A stretch of 64,000 nucleotides of DNA from an uncultured Actinomycetes bacterium (GCA_963766525.1 CAVYAX010000014.1:169527-233526), one strand, 5' to 3'; shown: positions 2,097 to 62,568, counted from the stretch's first letter. The notes: generated from the letters alone by a model not told the origin. Numbers and translations are program-made.

Positions 2097-2972
2097 GTGA
2101 CGATGGCGCTCGTCCTCGACATCCCGCTCAACACGATGCTCGCCGACCTCGACGAGTCGCTGCGCGCGCTCGTGCAGGGCGAGCTCGCCCGGCACGGCTT
2201 CGACAGCGTCGACGTGACCTTCGACGCGCCGACGACCGAGTGGTCCAGCCAGCTTCAGGCGCCGACGATCGACATGTTCCTCTACGACCTGCGCGAGTCC
2301 TCCGAGCACCGCCATCGCACGATCGACGAGCGCCGCGCCAACGGCGGCGCGGTCGAGACGCGCCCGCCGTTCATGCTCGAGTGCTCCTACGCGATGACGG
2401 CCTGGACGCAGGAGGTCGAAGACGAGCACCGGCTGCTGTCGCAGCTGCTGACGATCCTCTACTCCTATCCGCGCCTGCCGGAGGAGGCGCTCTCCGGCCG
2501 CCTCGCGGCCGGCGCCCAGCGCTACCCGATCTTCGGCCGCGTCGGCCAGCCGAAGGCCGAGGGCAAGGCCGACTTCTGGAACGCCGTCGGTGGGCAGTAC
2601 AAGGCCTCGCTGGACTACGTCGTGACGCTGTCCTGCGAGGCGGGCGCGATGCACGAGCGCGGTCCGGAGACGCGCGGCGTCACGGTGCGTGTCGCGGATT
2701 CAGGCGGGCCGCCCGGCTCCGTCACCGAGCTGCACAGCATCAGCGGCCGCGTCGCGGGCCCGGCCGGCGATCCACTCGCCGCGGCCTGGGTCACCCTGCC
2801 CGGCCTGGGGCGCTGGACCTCCAGCGACGAGCACGGCCGCTTCGCGATCACCCGCGTCCCGGCGGGCACGCATCAGGCGGTCGCACGCGCCCGCGACGGC
2901 GGCGAGACCGAGGCCACGCTCACGGTCCCCGGCGCGCCGGTCGAGCTGGTCGTCGAGCCGTCGCCCGATTGA
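2097..2972 (+). CDS. eCIS tail terminator or cap protein of the DUF4255 / Pvc16-Afp16 N-domain family, with a C-terminal carboxypeptidase-regulatory-like beta domain.
   Basis: The N-terminus L..L...L...L......FDAPT.EW......PTIDMFLYDLRE is characteristic of DUF4255. The start is GTG at 2097 or ATG at 2103. Confidence 0.7.
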   Translation: MTMALVLDIPLNTMLADLDESLRALVQGELARHGFDSVDVTFDAPTTEWSSQLQAPTIDMFLYDLRESSEHRHRTIDERRANGGAVETRPPFMLECSYAMTAWTQEVEDEHRLLSQLLTILYSYPRLPEEALSGRLAAGAQRYPIFGRVGQPKAEGKADFWNAVGGQYKASLDYVVTLSCEAGAMHERGPETRGVTVRVADSGGPPGSVTELHSISGRVAGPAGDPLAAAWVTLPGLGRWTSSDEHGRFAITRVPAGTHQAVARARDGGETEATLTVPGAPVELVVEPSPD

Positions 2973-3065
2973 CCGAAAGGGCATCCGACCGGCCCGGGCG
3001 AGGGTGCCCGAACGGCTGGCCACCGCGCTCTGGTCGGCTCGCCGCCGACGCGCAACGCTGGGCCC

Positions 3066-6055: not shown

Positions 6056-7855
6056 ATGAGCGACGACACCACACCTCTCCAGCCCGGCTCGACGCGGCTC
6101 TCGCGCTCGGTCCTGCAGCGCGCCGGCCGCCTCGCGCGGTCGGGCTCAGCGCTCGCACGCACGGTCGCGGCCCGCCACGACGTGCGGCGGACCGCAGAGC
6201 CGCCGCGGCTGGTGCCGGCGGCGTCCGCGTCCGTGGCACGCACGGTCGCACAGGATGACGCGCCGGGCGCCGAGCCGATCGACGACGAGGCGCGTCGCGG
6301 CGAGGCCGAGCGGCTGTCGCGGCTGTCGGGCTACGCGCCGGACGTCATGGAGTACCTCGTGGGCAACGCACGTCCGGCGGGACCGGCGCCGCTGGCGCTC
6401 GGCGATGCCGCCGCCGGCATCCAACGGGTGGCGCGACGGGAGGCCGGCGAGCGCCCGGCGACCCCGCGCCGCAGCGCGATCGAGGAGGACGCCGCCCCGC
6501 GTGCGCTGCGCCTGTCGCGCACGCCGGCGCAGCCCGTCGTGGAGCCCCGGGTCAGCGCTGCGCAGCCGCCCGGCGAGGCGCTGTCGCCGCAGGCCACCGG
6601 TGCCGCGCCCGGCCCGGTGCCGGCGCAAGACCCGGTGCCGGCGCACGACGACGGCGAGCCACCCGCGGCCTTCGCCAACGAGCTGGCGGCGGCGTCCGCG
6701 GCGCAATCCGCGACGAGCCGCGCGCGGCTGACGCTGGCCCGGCGTGTCGCGCCGGACGAGCCGGCCACGGCCTCGACGACCGCACCGCCGGTCGCGCTGC
6801 GGCTTGCGCGTCGCGCCGCGCCCGAGCAGCCGGATGTGCCGGTCGCACCGCGGCTTGCGCGTCGCGCCGCGCCCGAGCCGCCGGATGTGCCGGTCCCACG
6901 CGAACCCGCGGCCGGCCCGCCGGCCCCCGAGCCGCCCGCCGGGCGCGAGGCGGGGCCGCTCGGCCGCCTGTGGCGGCGCGTGGCAAGCGGCCCGCGCGGC
7001 TCGGAGCCCGGACCCGAGCCCGCCCGGCCGCGGCGCGGCGCCGCGGCCGCGGCGCGCGTGGCACCGGTCCTCGCCCGTACGCCCACCGGCGAGGCACCGG
7101 CCCCGGCCGCCACCACGGCCGACGACGCGCACACGCTCGCCGCCACCACGGCCGGCGACCCGCACACGCTCGCCGCCACCACGGCCGGCGACCCGCACAC
7201 GCTCGCCGCGACCACCGCCGGCGATTCGCACGCGCCGGCGCTCGCGACCGCCACGACCGGCGACCCGCAGACGCCGGCGCTCGCCCTCGCTCGGACGCGC
7301 GACGCGACGGCCCTGGCGCTCGCCGCCGGCGCCACCGGCGTCGCGCGGGCTCCCGGAGGACCCGCGCCCGGCGTAGCGCAAGCGCCGCCCGCGCCCGGCG
7401 CGACGCGCGCCGGCGCGGCGACAGCGCGCCTCGCCCGCACGCCGGCGCGCCAAACAGAGCGGCCCCGGCTGCGCGTGCAGCGCCGCGAGGCCCCCGCCGC
7501 GGGGGCCGCGAGCGCGCCCGAGCCCGCCCGGCCCCTGACCACCGCCCAAGTGCTGGCCCGCGCGACCGCGGGTGCGATCGAATACGAGGACGAGGGGCGC
7601 GTCAGCGTGCTGCTCCCGCCGCCGGGCGCCGTCTTCGGGAGCCCGCCGCGGGCCATCGCCCGCGAGGAGAGCATCGCCGAGCCGGCCGGCGCTGCCCCGA
7701 TCGCGCCGTCGGGACCGGCCGAATCGCTCCCGCCAGCCGAGCCGCCTGCGACGGCGGACGGTCTCGCCGTCGACCGTGACGAGCTGTACGCCGACTTCGC
7801 GCAGCGGCTGCGGCGCGACATCCTCGAGCAGCGCGAGCAGCGCGGAGAGCTCTGA
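6056..7855 (+). CDS. Low-complexity Pro/Ala/Arg-rich protein (599 aa) with internal (L/V)ARR(A/V)(A)PEQPDVPV-type repeats and a conserved-looking C-terminal tail. It is a putative tape-measure or length-determining protein (Afp14-like).
   Basis: It sits between the two tube genes, its stop overlaps the tube-2 start (TGATG), and it has a non-globular repetitive composition with a structured C-terminus (..DRDELYADFAQRLRRDILEQREQRGEL). Assignment is by analogy only. Confidence 0.45.
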   Translation: MSDDTTPLQPGSTRLSRSVLQRAGRLARSGSALARTVAARHDVRRTAEPPRLVPAASASVARTVAQDDAPGAEPIDDEARRGEAERLSRLSGYAPDVMEYLVGNARPAGPAPLALGDAAAGIQRVARREAGERPATPRRSAIEEDAAPRALRLSRTPAQPVVEPRVSAAQPPGEALSPQATGAAPGPVPAQDPVPAHDDGEPPAAFANELAAASAAQSATSRARLTLARRVAPDEPATASTTAPPVALRLARRAAPEQPDVPVAPRLARRAAPEPPDVPVPREPAAGPPAPEPPAGREAGPLGRLWRRVASGPRGSEPGPEPARPRRGAAAAARVAPVLARTPTGEAPAPAATTADDAHTLAATTAGDPHTLAATTAGDPHTLAATTAGDSHAPALATATTGDPQTPALALARTRDATALALAAGATGVARAPGGPAPGVAQAPPAPGATRAGAATARLARTPARQTERPRLRVQRREAPAAGAASAPEPARPLTTAQVLARATAGAIEYEDEGRVSVLLPPPGAVFGSPPRAIAREESIAEPAGAAPIAPSGPAESLPPAEPPATADGLAVDRDELYADFAQRLRRDILEQREQRGEL

Positions 7856-44484: not shown

Positions 44485-44635
44485 ACGGGCCGGCCGGCAG
44501 GCGGTCGCTCGTCGGATGCGGCCGGCGGCTTCGGGGGCCGGCCGCCAGGCGGTCGCTCGTCGGATGCGGCCGGCGGCTTCGGGGCCGGCCGCCAGGCGGT
44601 CGCTCGTGGATGCGTCCGGCGGCTCGATAGACCCG
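44485..44635. repeat. Intergenic tandem repeat of roughly 49 bp x3, with a degenerate third copy.
   Basis: Direct reading: ggccggc(c/a)ggcaggcggtcgctcgtcggatgcggccggcggcttcggg(g) is repeated between the convergent genes. Confidence 0.6.
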
Positions 44636-51413: not shown

Positions 51414-53039
51414 ATGAGGCGGCGCGAATGGTGGGCGTGGGGCGCGCTGGTCGCGCTCGCGTTCGCTGCCCGCCTGGCCGACCTCGGAAGCCGCCCGTAC
51501 CAGTTCGACGAGGGCCAGGTCGCCTACGCCGCCTATCAGCTGTCGGCGCACGGCGACTACCACTACATGCCGGTCCTGCACGGGCCGCTGAACTACGAGC
51601 TCACCGCGCTGAGCCACCTCGTGTTCGGCACGGTCGACGTCGCCAATCGGATCCCGGCGGCGATCGCCGGCACGCTCCTCGTCGCGCTGGCGTTCGGCCT
51701 GCGCCGCCAGCTCGGTCGCGAGGCGGCGTTCGCCGGCGGCGTCTTGCTGTGCTTCAGCCCGACGCTCTTGTACTACTCGCGCTTCAGCCGCGAGGAGCTT
51801 GTCATGGCGTGCGTCACGCTCGCGCTCGTCGTGGTCGCGGCGCGGCTCGTCGCGGCGCCGCGCCGCTGGCACGTCGAGGCGCTCGGCGGCCTGCTCGCGC
51901 TGAGCTTCGCGACGAAGGAGGCCACGTTCCTGCACGTGCCGATCGGGATCGTCGCTGGGCTGGCGTGGTGGCGGTGGCGCGGTCCCGCGCGCCTCCCGGG
52001 GCCCGCGCGCCTCCCGGGGCCCGCGCGCCTCCCGGGGCCCGCACGCCTCCCGCTCGGGATCGGCCCGCGCGGGAGGGGTCTGGCGAAAAACGGCGTCTAT
52101 GGCGCCGTTTTTCGCCAGACCCCCCTGCGTTGGTGGCTGTCGGGCGCCGCGGTGTTCGTGCTCGTCTTCGTGATCCTCTTCGGGCAGTTCGGCACGCACC
52201 TCTCGGGCGTCTGGGACGGCGCCTACGAAGGCCTCGCTTACTGGGCGCACGAGCACGGCCTGCACCGCGGCGGCGAGGACTGGTTCGCCTACCTCATCCT
52301 GCTCGTCGCCTACGAGCTGCCGCTGCTGGTGCTCGGCGCGATCGGCGCGGTGTGGTCCGTGCGGCGGCGCCACGCGCTCGGCACGGGCATGACCGTCGCG
52401 GCGGTGCTGACGCTCGCGATCTACTCCTACGCCGGCGAGCGGTTCGCCTGGCTGCTCGTGACGACGCTCATCCCGCTCGCGCTGCTCGCCGGCCTCGGCT
52501 TCGCGGCGCTATGGCGGTCGCGGCGCGCCGTCGCGATCGCGGTCACCGTGCCGTTGCTGGCGGCGCTCGCCTGGAGCGACGTGCAGGCGCAGATCCTGCG
52601 CCCCAACGACCCGCGCGAGCTCATGACGGTCGCGCCCACGGACGCCGTCGTGCCCCGGATCGCGTCCGAGCTGCGCCTGCGCGACGCGCGTGCGCGCGCG
52701 GCCGGACGCCCGCGCCCCACGATCGAAGTCGACCTGAACTACGGCTCGGCGTCGCCGTGGTCGTGGTACCTGCGCGACCTGCTCGGCGGCTACCCCGACA
52801 TGGCCGCGGACACGTACGTCCCGACCGGCGAGGTGCTCATCGTGACCGACACCTCGCGCGAGCTGCTCGGCTCACGCCTGCGCGACTACGAGGGCCGCCC
52901 GTTCGTCCTGCGCGGCCGCCGGCCGTCGATGGGCACGGGCTTCAGCCCTAAGGGCCTCGTCCACTGGTTCTTGTACCGCGAGCCGTGGGCGCCGGTGACC
53001 CCCGAGCGCGAGTGGCTCTACGAGCGACACGCTCCCTGA
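51414..53039 (+). CDS. Large polytopic membrane protein resembling the PMT/ArnT-type (GT39/GT83-like) glycosyltransferase or 'flippase-like' family. It carries an in-frame 18-bp x4 tandem repeat and an embedded 21-bp hairpin.
   Basis: The N-terminus WWAWGALVALAFAARLADLGSRPYQFDEGQVAYAAYQL..HYMPVLHGPLNYEL is typical of this family. The start is at MRRREWW (51414), or at 51366. Confidence 0.55.
   Translation: MRRREWWAWGALVALAFAARLADLGSRPYQFDEGQVAYAAYQLSAHGDYHYMPVLHGPLNYELTALSHLVFGTVDVANRIPAAIAGTLLVALAFGLRRQLGREAAFAGGVLLCFSPTLLYYSRFSREELVMACVTLALVVVAARLVAAPRRWHVEALGGLLALSFATKEATFLHVPIGIVAGLAWWRWRGPARLPGPARLPGPARLPGPARLPLGIGPRGRGLAKNGVYGAVFRQTPLRWWLSGAAVFVLVFVILFGQFGTHLSGVWDGAYEGLAYWAHEHGLHRGGEDWFAYLILLVAYELPLLVLGAIGAVWSVRRRHALGTGMTVAAVLTLAIYSYAGERFAWLLVTTLIPLALLAGLGFAALWRSRRAVAIAVTVPLLAALAWSDVQAQILRPNDPRELMTVAPTDAVVPRIASELRLRDARARAAGRPRPTIEVDLNYGSASPWSWYLRDLLGGYPDMAADTYVPTGEVLIVTDTSRELLGSRLRDYEGRPFVLRGRRPSMGTGFSPKGLVHWFLYREPWAPVTPEREWLYERHAP
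51984..52055 (+). repeat. 18-bp x4 perfect tandem repeat (cccgcgcgcctcccgggg) encoding (GPARLP)4 inside the membrane-protein CDS.
   Basis: Direct reading. Confidence 0.8.
52075..52123. repeat. Perfect 21-bp inverted repeat (ggggtctggcgaaaaacggcg / cgccgtttttcgccagacccc) with a 7-nt loop, forming a hairpin with an A5/T5 core inside a CDS.
   Basis: Direct reading. It is locally AT-rich against a ~70% GC background. Confidence 0.8.
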
Positions 53040-55611: not shown

Positions 55612-57156
55612 TCAGGCCTCCTTCGACCGCTCGCGCAACTCGATGCGGCGGATCTTGCCGGTCAGGGTCTTGGGCAGGTCGTCGACGAACTCGACGATCC
55701 GGGGGTACGCGTACGCCGACAGGTGCCCGCGCACGAACTGCGAGATCTCCTTGCCGAGCTCGTCCGACGGCTCGTACCCGGACGCGAGCACGACGAACGC
55801 CTTGACGATGTTGCCGCGCCGCTCGTCGGGCCACGCGACGGCCGCGGCCTCGGCGACCGCGGGATGCTCGAGGCACGTCGACTCGACCTCGAACGGGCCG
55901 ATCCTAAAGCCCGCGGAGATGATCACGTCGTCGGCGCGGCCCTCGTACCAGAAGTAGCCGTCGTCGTCGATCGACGCGGCGTCCTTCGTGTGGAACCAGT
56001 CGCCTCCGAACGTTTCCTTCGCGGCCTCCTCGTTGTTCCAGTAGCCGAGCGGATAGTGCGGGTTCGAGCGGGCGCGCAGGCAGATCTCGCCGCGCTCGCC
56101 GACGGCCACCGGCCGCTCGTCCTCGTCGAGGATCTGCACGTCCCAGCCGGGCAGCGGCTTGCCCATGGAGCCCTCGCGCACCTCCATGAACGGGAAGTTC
56201 CCGCACAGCGGATAGCTCTCGCTCAGCCCGTAGTAGTCGAGCACCGTCACGCCGTACTGCTCGCGAAACCAGCGGATCGCCTCGGGGTTCAGCGGCTCGC
56301 CCGCCGAGCAGACGATGCGGAAGTCCTGCGGGTAGCGCGTGCCGGCGTCGGAGATGCCCATCATCGAGCGGATCGCGGTCGGCGTGCCGAAGACGTTCGT
56401 CGGGCGGTGGCGCGAGAGGAACGCGAGCTGGCCGTGCGGGTCGAAGCCGCCCTTGCGCTGCAGCACGACCTGCACCGCGCCGTAGCGCCACGGCCCGATC
56501 AGCGGCGAGATGCCGGCCGCCCACGCCCACTCGCCCATGCCGTGGAAGCGCTCTTCGTCCTGCACGTCGTGGCAGTAGACGAACTCGTTGTGGCCGAGGA
56601 TGTAGCGGTGGGCGTGCAGGATGCCCTTCGCCAGGCCCGTCGTGCCGGACGTGTAGTAGAGCTGCGCCGGGTCGTCGGCGGCCGTGTCGACGGGCTCGAA
56701 GTCCGTGTCGCCGGAGTCCAGGTCGCCGGGCTCGATGACGATGACGTCGGCCTGGCCCTCGACCCGGGAGCGATTGGCCTCGTTCGTCACGACGACCTTC
56801 GCCTGCGAGTCCGACAAGCGGTGGGTGATCCCCTCGTCGCCGTAGAGCACGGACATCGACAGCAGGATCGCGCCGCTCTTCCACGTCGCGAAGAACGCGG
56901 CGGCGGTCTCGGGCGTCGGCGGCAGGAGCATCGCGACGCGGTCGCCGCGCTGCACGCCGTGCTCGCGCAGCCGCAGCGCGAAGCGGTTGGACATGTCCTG
57001 AAGCTCTCCCCAGTCCAGCTCGCGGACGTTGCCGTCGGGATCCTCGTGGATCATGGCGAGCTTCTCGCGCGGGTGCTTGTCGCAGACGTCCGCGGCGATG
57101 TTGTAGCGCTCGGGCACGTGCCACGAGTGCTGTGCACACGCCTCCTCGTAGGTCAT
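55612..57156 (-). CDS. AMP-dependent synthetase/ligase (acyl- or aryl-CoA ligase, ~514 aa).
   Basis: The AMP-binding motif YTSGTTGLAKGI and C-terminal ...GKIRRIEL. It sits in tandem with acs. Confidence 0.85.
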   Translation of the reverse strand: MTYEEACAQHSWHVPERYNIAADVCDKHPREKLAMIHEDPDGNVRELDWGELQDMSNRFALRLREHGVQRGDRVAMLLPPTPETAAAFFATWKSGAILLSMSVLYGDEGITHRLSDSQAKVVVTNEANRSRVEGQADVIVIEPGDLDSGDTDFEPVDTAADDPAQLYYTSGTTGLAKGILHAHRYILGHNEFVYCHDVQDEERFHGMGEWAWAAGISPLIGPWRYGAVQVVLQRKGGFDPHGQLAFLSRHRPTNVFGTPTAIRSMMGISDAGTRYPQDFRIVCSAGEPLNPEAIRWFREQYGVTVLDYYGLSESYPLCGNFPFMEVREGSMGKPLPGWDVQILDEDERPVAVGERGEICLRARSNPHYPLGYWNNEEAAKETFGGDWFHTKDAASIDDDGYFWYEGRADDVIISAGFRIGPFEVESTCLEHPAVAEAAAVAWPDERRGNIVKAFVVLASGYEPSDELGKEISQFVRGHLSAYAYPRIVEFVDDLPKTLTGKIRRIELRERSKEA

Positions 57157-57214
57157 GACTCAGACCGTACCCGTCCGGCCAAGGCGGAGCGCAAGATCGG
57201 CGCGGGCGACGACG

Positions 57215-58192
57215 CTACCGGCGCTTGCGCTTGCGCTTCTTCGACGACGGGTGCGGGCGGCGCTCGGGCAGCTCCGGCGCAGGCGTCTTCGGCGGCTCGG
57301 CGGGCGCGTGGCGCTTGCCGCGGCGCGGTGCTTGGTCGGCGTCCTCGTCGTCGTCGGGCGTGCGAGGTCCCATGCGCGCCTCGCGCAGCTCCTGCTGGGA
57401 CGGCCATGGCTGCGCGTCGCCGGTGACCCATGCGGGCGGCAGGCCGGCCGGCCACTTGCCGAGGAACAGCGCGCCGATCGCCACGAGCCAGAACGCTTGC
57501 ACGATCGGCAGCGACGCGCCCAGCGGGATGATGAACAGCGCCCCGACGATGATGCCCAGCACGCCCATGAAGCGCGTGAGCAGGCCGACGCGCATGCCGT
57601 TGAGAGCGAGCAGCACGAACGCGAGCGCCAGCGCGAAGACGCCGATGACCTGGAGCAGCCCGGCCGCGAGCAGCGCCGGCGGCTGGAGCGCGTCGCGCGC
57701 CTCGGCGGCGGTCTGCGTGGCGGAGTCCGCGAACGCCGAGGCGGACAGAGCGCCGCCGATCGCCTGCACGAGGCTCGACACGGCGAGCATGACCGAGCCT
57801 GTCACCGCGGCGACGACGATCGCGCGCGGCAGGTCGGGCCGGCGGGCTTTGACCGAGCGGTAGAGATGCGTGAGCGTGAGGCCGATCGCTGCCGCCGCGA
57901 GCGCCAGCACGACGCCGAGCAAGATGATCTGGACGGCGTTCTCGTCGGCCCACAGCACCTGGCGTGCCTTCAGCCCCGGCTCGGGCGGGTTGGGCGTGAG
58001 GTGCTCGCGGAGCGAGTCGATGACCGGCACGGTCGGCCGGTCGCTGAAGATCGCCGCGGTCAGCGCGCCGCCGGCGAGCGTCAGGATCCCGGCGGCGATC
58101 CCCGCGACACCGGCCTGGACGCGCCTGCGCTGCTCGTCGGCAAGCGTCGCGTCAGGGGTGGGCGCCATCGTCTCTTCCCCGGTGGTCGCCAC
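57215..58192 (-). CDS. Membrane protein with about 6 TM helices and a strongly basic C-terminal tail. Hypothetical.
   Basis: ORF with hydrophobic helices and a KKRKRKRR end. No family was recognised. Confidence 0.5.
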   Translation of the reverse strand: MATTGEETMAPTPDATLADEQRRRVQAGVAGIAAGILTLAGGALTAAIFSDRPTVPVIDSLREHLTPNPPEPGLKARQVLWADENAVQIILLGVVLALAAAAIGLTLTHLYRSVKARRPDLPRAIVVAAVTGSVMLAVSSLVQAIGGALSASAFADSATQTAAEARDALQPPALLAAGLLQVIGVFALALAFVLLALNGMRVGLLTRFMGVLGIIVGALFIIPLGASLPIVQAFWLVAIGALFLGKWPAGLPPAWVTGDAQPWPSQQELREARMGPRTPDDDEDADQAPRRGKRHAPAEPPKTPAPELPERRPHPSSKKRKRKRR

Positions 58193-58200
58193 GGCCGCAA

Positions 58201-58665
58201 GTGTATGTTGCGGTCGTGGAGATTCGAGACGTGATGACCGAGAGCGTTGTCACCGCGCGGCCGTCGGCCACGGTCCGTCAGGTTGCCGAGCTCATGCGCG
58301 AGCGCAACGTCGGCTCGGTCGTGCTGCTGGACTTGGAGGGGTCGCTCGTGGGCTTCGTCACCGATCGCGATCTGGCGCTGGGCGCGCTGACCGACGGCCG
58401 CGACCCCGGCGACCCGGTCGCCGCGCACAGCTCGTCGCCCGTCGTGACGGCCGAGCCGGGCATGGACGTCGAGGAGGCGGCCGAGCTCATGGTCCGCCAC
58501 GGCATCCGCCGCCTGCCGATCCTCGACGACGGCCGGCTCACCGGGATCATCACGCTGGACGACATCGCCGTGCGCACGGGCGATCTCGAGCTCGCCCACC
58601 ACATGACGGCGCAGATCACCCGGGCCGCGCTGCCGGGCTTCTACTTCCACGACCGCGGCGGGTGA
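58201..58665 (+). CDS. CBS-pair domain protein.
   Basis: ...VMTESVVTARPSATVRQVAELMRERNVGSVVLLD...GFVTDRDL... repeated twice matches the CBS pattern. Confidence 0.7.
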   Translation: MYVAVVEIRDVMTESVVTARPSATVRQVAELMRERNVGSVVLLDLEGSLVGFVTDRDLALGALTDGRDPGDPVAAHSSSPVVTAEPGMDVEEAAELMVRHGIRRLPILDDGRLTGIITLDDIAVRTGDLELAHHMTAQITRAALPGFYFHDRGG

Positions 58666-58828
58666 GCGACCGGCCGCTCGACCGGGCCTTGCCGCGCCCT
58701 GCGGCCCGAGCCGATGAGCGACAGGCCGCTCCTCTCGACCGAGCCTTGCCGCGCCCTGCGGCCCGAGCCGATGAGCGGCAGGCCGCTCCTCTCGACCGGG
58801 CCTTGCCGCGCCCTGCGAGCCTGCGCCG
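58663..58828 (+). repeat. Three tandem degenerate copies (52, 57 and 58 bp) of the first ~57 nt of the downstream methyltransferase CDS. Each of the last two begins with ATGAGCG.
   Basis: Direct reading: the units start at 58663, 58714 and 58771, and the real gene start ATGAGCGCCAGGCCG is at 58829. Confidence 0.75.
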
Positions 58829-59776
58829 ATGAGCGCCAGGCCGATCGCCGTGCCCGCGTGCCCGGCCTGCGGCGGGCCGCTCGAGCGGTGGCGCACCGTG
58901 CCGGGATCCGATCCGGCGCTGCCGGGCGACTACGCGCTCGACCGCTGCCGGGCGTGCGGCACAGCCGTGACGCTCGCGCCCGTCCCCGACGAAGCGCACG
59001 AGTCGGGCGCCTACGGCGGGGGCGCACCACGGCTGTCGCGCCTCGTCCGGCCGGTCCTGCGCCTGTTCGATCGCCGCCGCCTCGCGCTGCTCGAGCGCGC
59101 GGGCGCGACGACGCCGGGGCGCCTGCTCGACGTCGGCGCCGGTCGCGGGCGCTTCGTCGCCCACGCGCGCTCCGTCGGCTGGTACGCGCACGGGATCGAG
59201 CCGTCGCAGCGCGGCGTCGACGGCGCCGCGGCGCTCGGCATCGAGCTCGTGCATGCCGAGATCCGCACCGCCGATGTCCCGCCCGCGTCGCTCGACGCGG
59301 TGACGCTGTGGCACGTGCTCGAGCACCTCGACGACCCGGTGCTCGCGCTCGAGTCGATCGCCGGGTGGCTGCGCCGCGGCGGGCTGCTGCTGGTGGGCGT
59401 GCCGAACCTCGCGAGCGTCCAGGCGCGGGTCGGCGGGGCGCGCTGGTATCACCTCGACGTCCCGCGCCATCGGACGCACTTCACCGCGCGGGGGCTCGCA
59501 GCGCTGCTGCGCGCGCACGGCTTCGAGCCGGTGGCGACGCAGCACGTGCTCCTCGAGCACAACCCGTTCGGGCTGTGGGTGTCGTTCGTGAGCCACTTCA
59601 CGCGCGTGCCGTCGTGGCTCTACCACGCGCTCAAGCACAACGCCCCGCTGCGCAGCCGCGACGCGCTCATCACTGCGCTGGCGCTGCCGCTCGTGCCGAT
59701 CGCGGTCCTGCTGGAGCTCGCGTTCGGGCTGGCGCGGCGCGGCGGGACGGTCGCCGTCGTCGCGCGCCGGGTCTAA
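58829..59776 (+). CDS. Class I SAM-dependent methyltransferase with an N-terminal zinc-ribbon (CPACGG...CRACG).
   Basis: Motif I LLDVGAGRGRF, a post-I acidic residue, and the overall Methyltransf_11/13-like layout. Confidence 0.75.
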   Translation: MSARPIAVPACPACGGPLERWRTVPGSDPALPGDYALDRCRACGTAVTLAPVPDEAHESGAYGGGAPRLSRLVRPVLRLFDRRRLALLERAGATTPGRLLDVGAGRGRFVAHARSVGWYAHGIEPSQRGVDGAAALGIELVHAEIRTADVPPASLDAVTLWHVLEHLDDPVLALESIAGWLRRGGLLLVGVPNLASVQARVGGARWYHLDVPRHRTHFTARGLAALLRAHGFEPVATQHVLLEHNPFGLWVSFVSHFTRVPSWLYHALKHNAPLRSRDALITALALPLVPIAVLLELAFGLARRGGTVAVVARRV

Positions 59777-60774
59777 GCCGCTTCCTCCGCCCGCTCGTCG
59801 ACCCAGCGATCGAGCGTCAGCCAGCGGGCGAACAGCCAGTCGATGCGCTCGTCCTCGCCGGCCGGGATCTCGTCGGGTCGCACGACCCACATCCGCAGCT
59901 CGACGGTCCGCGGCTCGAGCAGCAGGCGCCAGAGGTTGCTCGCGCCCGCCGGGATCCCCGAGTGCCCGACGAAGATCACGTCCGCTTCCGGCGCGCCGTC
60001 CACCGCCGCGAGCGCGCCTCCGGGCCGCGGCGCGGCGACGTGCTCCATCTCGCGCGCCCAGGCCGCCTCCTCGTGATGGCCCGCTTTCGCGAGGCGCTCG
60101 ATGCCGCGCGCGCGCCGCTCTGCGGAGAAGTTGCCGCCCTCGGGGAAGATCAGCACGGCGTCGTCGCCGCCGAGGCCGCGCGACATGGCCTCGATCTCGC
60201 CCTCGATGTCGCCGCCGCGCGGGTCCACGAAGCGGTAGTGCAGCCGCCGGCCGAGGACGTCGATGAGCGGATCCAGCGCCAGGCCCTCGTGCAGCACGAC
60301 CCGCGGCCGGCGCTCGTAGCGGCACAGCAGCGCGTGCAGGACGAGCATCGAGTCGCCCTCGCCGGAGTGCCGGCTCAGCACGATCGCCGGCCGCCTGCGA
60401 TCGGAGAGCGCCTCCTCCGCCTCGGCCGAGTCGGTGACGCGTATCCGCACGCGCGCGAGCCGGGTGATCGAGCGGTTGATCCGGCTCACGAACGTGGCCA
60501 TCACCTCGTGGTAGGCGTGCTCCGCGCGTGCGTCTCGCCGCAGGCCGCCCCCGAGCCACACGGTGAGGCACGCGAGCATCCCGGCGAGGTGCGCGGCGGC
60601 CCACGAGGCGAGGATCGCCACGACGCGCAGCGGTCGCCAGGCGCCGCCGGTCAGCGGCGAGGCGACGGCGGCGGCGAGCGCGAGCAGCGGCGACGCGACG
60701 ATGATCGCGAGGTCCACGAGCGCGACGAGCGGCGCGATGACCACGCGCCGGACGAGGGTCGGCGGGACGAGCAT
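59773..60774 (-). CDS. Membrane-associated lysophospholipid (1-acyl-sn-glycerol-3-phosphate) acyltransferase-like protein (PlsC family).
   Basis: N-terminal TM helices, the HX4D motif (RHSGEGD) and an FPEGG motif. It is translationally coupled (TGATG) to the upstream patatin gene. Confidence 0.7.
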   Translation of the reverse strand: MLVPPTLVRRVVIAPLVALVDLAIIVASPLLALAAAVASPLTGGAWRPLRVVAILASWAAAHLAGMLACLTVWLGGGLRRDARAEHAYHEVMATFVSRINRSITRLARVRIRVTDSAEAEEALSDRRRPAIVLSRHSGEGDSMLVLHALLCRYERRPRVVLHEGLALDPLIDVLGRRLHYRFVDPRGGDIEGEIEAMSRGLGGDDAVLIFPEGGNFSAERRARGIERLAKAGHHEEAAWAREMEHVAAPRPGGALAAVDGAPEADVIFVGHSGIPAGASNLWRLLLEPRTVELRMWVVRPDEIPAGEDERIDWLFARWLTLDRWVDERAEEAA

Positions 60775-61644
60775 CAGGCGGCGCTTCCGAGGTCGTGCTC
60801 GTCGAGATAGCGCGTGGTGGCCGCGTGCGCGTGAGCGATGCGGCCGCCCGCCTTCGAGGTGTCGCGGTAGCGCAGCTGCGAGAGGTCGGTGTAGCGCGGC
60901 GGGTCCTTCGCGCCGGTCGGCAGCACGTGGACCTCGACGTCGTCGGGCAGGTCGGCGAGGTCGCCGAGGAAGCGGTGGCGGCGCGCGACCTCGAACGCGA
61001 CGAGCGCGACCTCCCACGGCCAGCGCGGCGGCTCGAGCGGCCGGTCGAGCCGGCCGACGTGCAGCACGAAGATCTGCCGCGCGCCGAGCGTCACCGCGCG
61101 GCTCACGGGGATGCTGTTGACGATGCCGCCATCGATGTAGTGCTCGCCGCCGATCTCGACGGGCGGCAGGATGCCGGGCACGGCGGCCGAGGCGAGGACG
61201 GCGTCGACGAGCGGCCCGTCGGCGAACCAGTGCTCGCTGGCGCGCTCGATGCTCGCGGCGACGCACTGGAAGGGAACCGCGAGGTCCTCGATCCGTCCGT
61301 CCCCGAGGACGCGCGGCGAGCCGGGCGCGCAGCGTCTCGTTGCCGTGCAGGTGGGTGCGCGTGCGCGCCAGCGTCGCGGCGCGCCGCAGGACGGACCCGC
61401 CGAAGGCGCCTTGGCGGCCGATGTCCGCCCACAGGCGGGCGAGGCGCTGCACCCCGTCGGCGGTCGGGTCGGCGGCGACCGCGGCGCCGTTGATAGCGCC
61501 GACGGATGTCCCGAGCACGAGGTCCGGGACGATCCCGCGCTCGAGCAGCGCGCGCAGCATCCCGACCTCGTGCGCGCCGAGCGGCCCGCCGCCACCGCCG
61601 AGGACGAAGGCCACGCCACCATCCGCAGGCCGCGCCGGGGTCAT
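60774..61644 (-). CDS. Patatin-like phospholipase, with an apparent frameshift near 61320.
   Basis: The N-terminal oxyanion hole GGGGGPLG and the GTSVG (GxSxG) motif read in one frame. The Asp-Gly-Gly region (YIDGGIVNSIP) and the C-terminus read in another. Confidence 0.65.
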
Positions 61645-61758
61645 CACCCCCTCGTACCCGGGCCGGCGTCCCCGCACCTCGCAGCGAGGGGTGTCTCGTT
61701 CTGGTCGCGTATAGCGCGACGATAACGAGACACCCCCCGCGGGCGAAGCGGCTCCGGC

Positions 61759-62568
61759 TTACACCAAGACGCTGCGCGCGGCGGCGAGCGTGTCCCCGTC
61801 GGTGCTGCGGCGCGCGTCCGGGAGGAGCTTCGCCGCGGCGTCGGCGGCCGCGACGACGTGGGGCGGCGAGGCCGGACCCGTCACGACGGCGACCGGCACG
61901 CCGATCGCGCGCAGCTCGCCGCGCGAAGGCGACCAGCTGAGCTGGCCGGCGTAGTCCGCGAAGAAGCCCTTGCGCGACCCGCGGGCGCGCTCGCGGCGAC
62001 CCGCGTCCGCGCCCATGGCGGCGCCCGCGCCCGCGCCCATGGCGGCGCCCGTGCCCGCGCCCATGGCGGCCGCGTCGGCGTCGTCGCGCGCGTCGAGCCA
62101 CGCCGCGATCGCCTCCTCCGGCCCCCCGTCGCGCAGCGCCTGCTCGAGCAGCGAGCGCTCGGCCGCGAGCGCCTCGGTCGCCGCCGGCACGAACGCGAAC
62201 AGCGGCAGGTCCGCCAGCACGGCGGCGCTCGCGAGCTGCGGCCGGCGCACGAGCAGCTCGAGCACGACGAGCGCGCCGAAGCCCTCGCCGACCAGCACGG
62301 CCGGCTCGGCGCCGAGCGCGCGCAGCAGCGCGGCGGCGTCCTCGGACTGCTCCTGGACCGTCGTCGCGGCGTAGGGCTCGGGCGCGCCGCTCGCGCCGTA
62401 GCCACGGCGGTCGTAGGCGATCGCGCGCGCGCCGCAGGCCGCGAGCTCGTCGAGCAGGGGCGCTCCCGCCGCGGCATCGGACGCCATCCCGTGGACGAGG
62501 AGCAGCGGGCGCCCGACGCCGCGCTCGTCGTAGTGCAGCGCGACCCCCGCGCCCTCGACCTCAGGCAT
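61759..62568 (-). CDS. Alpha/beta-hydrolase fold protein.
   Basis: LLLVHGMASD...AYDRRGYGAS...GEGFGALV (a nucleophile-elbow-like motif). It contains a 21-bp x3 tandem repeat encoding AAMGAG(T/A)G. Confidence 0.7.
   Translation of the reverse strand: MPEVEGAGVALHYDERGVGRPLLLVHGMASDAAAGAPLLDELAACGARAIAYDRRGYGASGAPEPYAATTVQEQSEDAAALLRALGAEPAVLVGEGFGALVVLELLVRRPQLASAAVLADLPLFAFVPAATEALAAERSLLEQALRDGGPEEAIAAWLDARDDADAAAMGAGTGAAMGAGAGAAMGADAGRRERARGSRKGFFADYAGQLSWSPSRGELRAIGVPVAVVTGPASPPHVVAAADAAAKLLPDARRSTDGDTLAAARSVLV

Follow-up and report, generated by a model that had tools for sequence, protein, structure and literature searches.

A tandem array of start regions between a CBS-domain gene and a methyltransferase gene of an uncultured actinomycete, and a possible translational relay across it

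When the start codon of a gene overlaps the stop codon of its upstream neighbor, what becomes of the link between the two if the start region is multiplied in tandem? The question is raised by a locus in a 64,000-nucleotide stretch of DNA from an uncultured Actinomycetes bacterium (GCA_963766525.1, CAVYAX010000014.1:169527-233526), which we refer to as the window and number from its first letter. Here, a gene for a CBS-pair domain protein (CBS) is followed by a gene for a class I S-adenosylmethionine (SAM)-dependent methyltransferase (MT), and an array of 52- to 58-nt units, each opening with a start codon, lies between them. A preliminary description of this sequence took the array for a tandem triplication of the MT start, and offered a slippage-driven switch, a leader-peptide-like attenuator, or a simple duplication scar as its explanation. 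We favor, with moderate confidence, a lineage-specific, in situ tandem multiplication of the MT start region at a GTGA-coupled junction, with coupling kept by a relay through a short open reading frame (ORF) that bridges the array.

The array and its reading frames

The elements of the junction, all on the + strand, are as follows.

58234–58665, +: CBS-pair domain gene; 143 aa from ATG 58234, with the longest ORF from GTG 58201
58662–58713, +: unit u0, 52 nt, opening GTGAGCG (GTGAGCGACCGGCCG...); its GTG overlaps the CBS TGA (GTGA)
58714–58770, +: unit u1, 57 nt, opening ATGAGCG (ATGAGCGACAGGCCG...); its ATG shares the frame of CBS (frame 1)
58771–58828, +: unit u2, 58 nt, opening ATGAGCG (ATGAGCGGCAGGCCG...); diverged 3′ end with one extra base
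58829–58843, +: partial fourth copy, comprising the opening 15 nt of MT (ATGAGCGCCAGGCCG), by which Tandem Repeats Finder extends the array to 58843
58662–58832, +: bridge ORF, 56 codons in the third frame (VSDRPLDRALPRPAARADERQAAPLDRALPRPAARADERQAAPLDRALPRPASLRR*), forming GTGA with the CBS stop and ATGA with the MT start
58829–59776, +: class I SAM-dependent MT gene, 315 aa, with an N-terminal CxxC...CxxC zinc ribbon

Tandem Repeats Finder places the array at 58677–58843 (period 57, 2.9 copies, 93% matches, 0% indels, score 290), a second repeat search recovers the identical family, and a 36-nt unit core matches nowhere in the window outside the array (0.00 matches expected from shuffles, and none in 100). 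These results bear out the tandem triplication first described; the coordinates, the unit lengths, and the translation of u1 (MSDRPLLSTEPCRALRPEP) given for it are also correct. The first copy had been taken for a partial unit beginning at 58663; a copy is indeed present, but it lacks little of the full length, and its first base is that of a GTG at 58662, one position before the one given. The units are mutually 93–95% identical, with three substitutions and a 5-nt deletion separating u0 from u1, and four substitutions and one inserted base separating u1 from u2. The description of the copies as diverged versions of the real MT start holds for the first ~17 nt, to which the strong likeness is confined (over the full 72 nt, the match is equaled by 0.03% of random window segments); the partial fourth copy is identical to the GTG-start copy at 12 of 15 bases. 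Past nucleotide 17, the units and the MT start share only a colinear TGCC-CGGCCTGCGGC, a marginal similarity (p about 0.045) on which we do not rely.

Together u1 and u2 measure 115 nt (57 + 58), so that neither upstream ATG (58714 or 58771) shares the frame of MT, as had been noted. They lie in frame 1, which stays open to 60810 (698 codons) and runs out of frame across the whole MT gene. The MT frame is itself closed by a TGA inside each upstream ATGAGCG (58715 and 58772), and with the second of these in frame, MT can start no earlier than ATG 58829. What the preliminary description overlooked is the third frame: the first copy holds the ancestral GTG that overlaps the CBS stop in most relatives, and this GTG opens the 56-codon bridge ORF, whose TGA (58830–58832) overlaps the MT ATG at 58829. 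From GTG 58662 to ATG 58829 is 167 nt, or 2 mod 3, and it is for this reason that the TGA within the ATGA falls in the frame of the GTG.

It had also been suggested that the upstream ATGs might act as starts. We find no Shine-Dalgarno (SD) sequence at the ATGs at 58714, 58771, or 58829, where anti-SD pairing is −2.2 kcal/mol against a mean of −3.5 kcal/mol at random positions; SD statistics over crude longest-ORF starts are uninformative, with a mean of −4.5 versus −3.5 kcal/mol at random positions. Because they lack an SD sequence and lead into a frame that runs through MT out of register to 60810, the ATGs at 58714 and 58771 are probably silent, and their proposed role as starts finds no favor in these results. 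Neither they nor the ORF at 58714–60810 are genes, which is a warning for annotation.

Junctions in related genomes and the origin of the array

We compared the locus with 44 related CBS-MT junctions of Solirubrobacterales, 35 of them from species-representative genomes and the other nine from contigs of JGI, ENA, and Logan (designated here by L numbers). Including the window, the 45 junctions are of four kinds.

Direct −4 overlap, 34/45: the MT ORF opens at an NTG overlapping the CBS TGA (GTGA, ATGA, or TTGA)
Direct −8 overlap, 3/45: the CBS end and the MT start share 8 nt
Relay, 6/45 (window included): a short ORF opens at the overlapping GTG, and its TGA overlaps the MT start
Neither, 2/45: L024, and L007 with a 183-nt insertion

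A direct −4 or −8 overlap is thus present in 37 of the relatives' 44 junctions, and an unbroken chain of overlaps is kept in 43 of the 45. The −4 overlap is also given by independent gene callers on the JGI, ENA, and Logan metagenome contigs, and the last 18 nt of CBS, CACGACCGCGGCGGGTGA, are nearly invariant across the relatives. The direct NTGA overlap in most relatives points to a translationally coupled NTGA junction as the ancestral state. Relay ORFs are found in five relatives (L002, L003, L005, L203, and L205), all of them shorter than that of the window, with GTG-to-start distances of 20, 35, 50, 56, and 65 nt, every one of which is 2 mod 3.

The ancestral start is still recognizable in the array. 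The opening of u0, GACCGCGGCGGGTGAGCGACCGGCCG, shares 26 identical nt with L201, in which the GTG is the called MT start (VSDRPIACPAC). The L201 junction, in which GACCGCGGCGGGTGAGCGACCGGCCG is followed directly by ATCGCGTGCCCC, and GTGAGCGACCGGCCG likewise by ATCGC, is the window sequence minus the insert; in the window, the insert measures 167 nt past the 26 nt shared with L201, after which the sequence continues with ATCGCC. When the window is aligned with its relatives, both flanks are colinear and a block of about 150 nt is peculiar to the window. The nearest relatives (L001, L004, and L203) have an intermediate, two-start arrangement, GTGAGCG...CCGATGAGCG, with spacings of 24, 30, and 35 nt, and since a second start is already present in these three, the two-start state is older than the array. 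That second start, ATGAGCG, heads the MT ORF of the window at 58829, and the ancestral GTG with its context is still found at 58662.

The array itself is absent from all of the relatives compared, both in the alignment and in a blastn-short search of 80 loci. The same search, with the unit against the 64-kb window and these 80 loci (about 0.55 Mb), yielded only chance matches of 11–17 nt, and a scan of metagenome contigs for the specific unit pattern gave no matches; an 18-mer core has at least 120 single matches in metagenome contigs, but among the matches listed the flanks resemble the unit at no more than 25 of 59 bases, as expected by chance. The units are 93–95% alike, whereas identity to the nearest relatives is about 84% for MT DNA and 88–94% for CBS DNA; with no relative carrying the array, we conclude that the event is young and specific to this lineage. 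Two 15-nt direct repeats, GTGAGCGACCGGCCG and ATGAGCGCCAGGCCG, stand at the two ends of the array, and we infer that unequal recombination or slippage between these two start copies twice duplicated the start-plus-spacer unit.

The N-terminal segment of MT varies greatly among the relatives. The stretch from the start codon to the CPAC motif of the zinc ribbon ranges from 2 to 55 codons, and small tandem repeats occur in it in L011, L015, L019, L029, and L032, as well as in L071, where they were read by eye. Three of these are in-frame repeats within an MT N-terminal extension: PPAASAP and DSSTAAN, three times each, in L071 (2866–3004); GRGL twice in L029 (2806–2971); and a 21-nt unit twice in L011 (2905–3004). 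Judged from these sequences, the pre-CPAC segment of MT is unconstrained and repeat-prone.

Two relatives differ in other ways. The 183-nt junction insertion of L007 (about 2821–3004) contains a 14-nt perfect inverted repeat (GGGGTGTGTCGAAT...ATTCGACACACCCC) and might represent a hairpin element of small size; the direct overlap is interrupted by it, and another ORF terminates in a GTGA at a candidate MT start. In L004, a metagenome-assembled genome (MAG), the MT homologue goes out of frame just past CPACRGPLER (about 3030–3060), which is probably either a sequencing indel or a pseudogene.

Tandem arrays are not confined to this junction. The window has about 10, with periods of 18–57 nt, and those at 1–187, 6787–6899, 7106–7285, 44487–44624, 51984–52052, and 61993–62070 have periods of 18–51 nt, all multiples of 3. 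We considered whether other window arrays might also bridge gene junctions and ruled this out: that at 44487–44624 (a 48-nt unit, 2.9 copies) lies between convergent genes, and those in 6787–7285 lie in a stretch spanned only by long overlapping ORFs. The host genome seems prone to minisatellite-like duplication.

A predicted relay and its alternatives

We propose that transcription of the operon would begin upstream of CBS, and that ribosomes ending CBS translation at the TGA at 58663–58665 would restart at GTG 58662, as in the relatives. They would then translate the 56-codon bridge ORF, which would have no function of its own, stop at the TGA at 58830–58832, and restart at the overlapping ATG 58829, so that MT expression would still be coupled to that of CBS, by relay; the internal ATGs at 58714 and 58771 would be silent by-products. 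The restart at GTG 58662 is the best-supported of these steps, since its context is base for base that of the relatives' MT start, and on the same grounds the bridge ORF is very probably translated.

The relay presupposes a common transcript. The upstream neighbor of CBS is divergent and the downstream neighbor of MT is convergent, which makes CBS and MT a two-gene unit, and one candidate promoter element lies ahead of it.

58204–58209, +: TATGTT, candidate −10 hexamer of the CBS-MT bicistronic operon, 25 nt upstream of CBS ATG 58234, with GGAGA between the two

The actinobacterial-type −10 motif TANNNT is depleted about 4-fold in the window (36 found versus 153 ± 12 expected), and after 58204–58209 there is none on the + strand until 61719, so there is no −10-like element within or after the array (58210–61718). 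In the one instance looked at, TATGTT, the motif stands shortly before the CBS start, as would befit a −10 element. A scan of 57800–59400 for sigma-70 promoters and intrinsic terminators found nothing. From these signals, MT appears to be co-transcribed with CBS and to have no initiation signal of its own. The terminator scan also bears on the suggested leader-peptide attenuator, as do an Rfam search of 57000–60500 (no family at E ≤ 1) and the predicted RNA fold of 58640–58870, which at −111.3 kcal/mol is no more stable than shuffled sequences (z = −0.29) and reveals no special structure; none of these lends the attenuator any credence.

Several observations weigh against the proposed relay. 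The third-position G+C content (GC3) of the bridge frame is low, at 0.63–0.70, which implies that selection for coding does not act on the bridge peptide itself; neither it nor the frame-1 peptide has a Pfam match. At a single locus, the frame relation of 2 mod 3 has a chance of one in three. Among ~17 junction expansions, which were counted by eye and whose independence is not shown, two are uncoupled versus about 5.7 expected (binomial p about 0.04), a deficit that is no more than suggestive of selection for an unbroken chain. The frame relation of the window also hangs on length differences of 5 nt and 1 nt in one assembly, GTG 58850 may be an alternative MT start, and the dependence of MT on the relay is something that we infer from the sequence. 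Finally, a patatin-like gene on the minus strand, 2.5 kb away, switches frame near 61313 (61270–61360; ORFs 59773–61677 and 60774–61622), whereas L002, L003, L006, and L013 are continuous across this site; the switch could reflect either an indel in the assembly or a true pseudogene.

Some of these points would equally suit a purely neutral scar, in which MT is initiated independently at ATG 58829 or GTG 58850 and the bridge overlaps are coincidental, an account that we regard as doubtful but serious. One in three random spacings would give the identical frame relation, the low GC3 of the bridge frame agrees with it, L024 and L007 apparently live without an unbroken overlap chain, and tandem repeats are frequent in this genome even outside operons, as between the convergent genes at 44487–44624. 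It does less well with ATG 58829, which has neither an SD sequence nor a preceding −10-like hexamer, with the unbroken chain at 43 of 45 junctions, and with a GTG at 58662 whose context is the same as that of the relatives' working start. Duplication scar, one of the labels offered in the preliminary description, nonetheless remains the best for the origin of the array, and most likely we are dealing with a small, ordinary scar of this kind in which coupling has been preserved by chance or selection.

The remaining explanations are less credible. An assembly indel could conceal an array whose true length is a multiple of 3, with GTG 58662 still serving as the MT start and a repetitive N-terminal extension of roughly 55 residues. 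In-frame repeat extensions do exist (47 codons in L071 and 55 in L029), the patatin-like gene, which is conserved, has its apparent frameshift near 61313, and the L004 MAG also has a frameshift inside MT; yet homopolymer slips do not account for the differences between units (5 nt are missing from u0, and u2 has its additional base amid three other differences), and the TGAs at 58715 and 58772 would also have to be removed from the MT frame, so that a single indel could join GTG 58662 to MT only if it lay downstream of 58774. Relay ORFs are moreover present in JGI metagenome contigs (L203 and L205), and we judge an indel improbable. We give still less weight to a variable-number repeat switch, in which recombination between units toggles the MT N-terminus or the coupling. 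Units of 93–95% identity can recombine, and loss of the 58-nt u2, or of one base of it, would fuse an upstream ATG in frame (ATG 58714 and a 19-aa extension, if u2 is lost). The basic 57-nt unit is a multiple of 3, however, so that its gain or loss leaves the frame as it was; no copy-number variant was found, the array occurring once in all of the collections searched and in one assembly only; and the pre-CPAC stretch is unconstrained in relatives, so that an extension would probably be of no functional consequence. The classical slippage switch that had been suggested finds no support either, on the first of these grounds. Least credible of all is a mobile family resembling MIRUs (for mycobacterial interspersed repetitive units), one that inserts at start codons in place of local duplication. 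Such a family would account for tandem units of about 50–58 bp in an intercistronic position within an operon, for an ORF overlapping both neighbors, and for empty sites in relatives (PMC12548453, PMC3184786, PMC3558156), but no second copy is found in the 64-kb window, in the approximately 0.55 Mb of relatives' loci, or in metagenome contigs, and two points speak for a local origin: within the unit lie the host's start codon, in duplicate, and the codons that open the host gene, and the nearest relatives have the two-start intermediate.

In the two genes that the proposed relay would join, CBS and MT, GC3 is 0.93–0.95, and the G+C content of the window is 72%. The product of 58234–58665 matches the Pfam CBS family with two domains (E = 1e-30), its TGA stop lies at 58663–58665, and 143 aa is also the length given for CBS by gene callers in relatives. 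MT matches Methyltransf_23 (E = 7.5e-26), and its zinc ribbon motif reads CPAC...CRAC. It has 1928 homologues at E ≤ 1e-20, carrying Solirubrobacteraceae and Solirubrobacterales MAG names; the sole 100% match (P0001) is on one NCBI/ENA contig, and the next best are 84–85% identical. Solirubrobacterales genomes whose MT is ~72% identical or more keep CBS and MT adjacent, with stop/start overlap, and the CBS neighbor is mostly missing beside more distant MT homologues (around 60% identity). This pattern of neighborhood hints that the CBS protein could be a partner or regulatory subunit of the MT enzyme. The NTGA form is found at 18 of 46 longest-ORF starts in a crude gene set from the window, a count that suggests that 4-nt stop/start overlaps may be very common in the host genome. 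Downstream, the MT stop overlaps by 4 nt (59773–59776) the stop of a convergent acyltransferase/patatin ORF; the patatin and acyltransferase parts seem to be fused in one 630-aa ORF in L013, and are two genes in other relatives.

Comparison with contingency loci, coupled gene pairs, and MIRUs

The locus offers a probable natural example of a coupled pair with a 4-nt overlap that absorbs a 167-nt insertion with its coupling chain unbroken, in which the displaced ancestral start would now drive a relay ORF. Together with the five shorter relay ORFs and the many in-frame extensions, it provides a small comparative set on the junction rearrangements that are tolerated. The locus also exemplifies a MIRU-like architecture that has arisen locally in another actinobacterial order. 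The importance of the case is modest, and it amounts to new biology only if the relay proves to be required or the unit to be dispersed.

The array resembles contingency loci in lying at the 5′ end of a gene and in having a length that sets the frame relation to upstream starts. It differs from them in that its units are 57 nt, a multiple of 3, where those of contingency loci are 1–9 nt, and in that the upstream ATGs have no ribosome-binding signal. We rejected a phase-variable repeat as a class for it, the consensus period being 57 nt and only the diverged 58-nt unit shifting the frame.

The resemblance to NTGA coupling is closer. It is established that ribosomes can terminate and reinitiate at NTGA and can be 'delivered' to a following start by short ORFs (Huber et al. 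2019, PMC6728339; PMC12548453), and no spacing of coupled genes is commoner in prokaryotes than NTGA (PMC6728339; PMC12548453). The bridge ORF has this form at either end (GTGA at 58662–58665 and ATGA at 58829–58832), the direct overlap is conserved in relatives, and the downstream start has no SD sequence. The window departs from the usual arrangement in having two such predicted steps in series, by way of an ORF made by duplication.

The closest analogue is the MIRU (Supply et al. 1997, as described in PMC12548453 and PMC3184786), exemplified by the intercistronic array of senX3-regX3, in which the MIRU ORF is coupled at −4 to the neighboring genes, an arrangement thought to permit insertion with little effect on expression (PMC12548453, PMC3184786). 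In both, there are a few tandem units of similar size (51–54 and 77 bp in Mycobacterium tuberculosis, PMC3558156; 52–58 nt here), in a high-GC, actinobacterial-type genome and between co-oriented genes of one operon, with no −10-like hexamer or terminator between them here. In both, too, a repeat ORF overlaps the stop and the start of its neighbors at −4, although here this is true of the whole array and not of each unit, and related genomes have an empty site. The differences concern origin and distribution. MIRUs are dispersed over about 40–50 loci and are thought to be mobile, whereas the window unit is found at one locus only; there is no second copy in 64 kb of host genome, the density of MIRUs in M. 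tuberculosis being roughly one locus per 100 kb. In the window, the host gene itself supplied the start region that makes up the unit. By our arithmetic, the lengths of 53 and 77 bp found in MIRU units are both 2 mod 3, such that each unit can be its own relay ORF, but the basic unit here is 57 nt, or 0 mod 3, and it takes the whole array to make one relay ORF. The host belongs to the Solirubrobacterales and not to Mycobacterium, and the likeness described here is one of architecture. Because of the lack of a second copy in the sequences searched, the host-derived unit, and its length of 0 mod 3, we do not class the array as a MIRU, although by analogy it would work like one. A bolder reading, which we think rather unlikely, is that insertions and duplications at CBS-MT junctions survive only when the overlap chain is unbroken, whether as an in-frame extension or by a relay ORF, and that the window holds a MIRU-like coupled array born in situ, outside the mycobacteria, from the start region of a gene; if true, this could serve as a model of the way in which MIRU-type elements arise.

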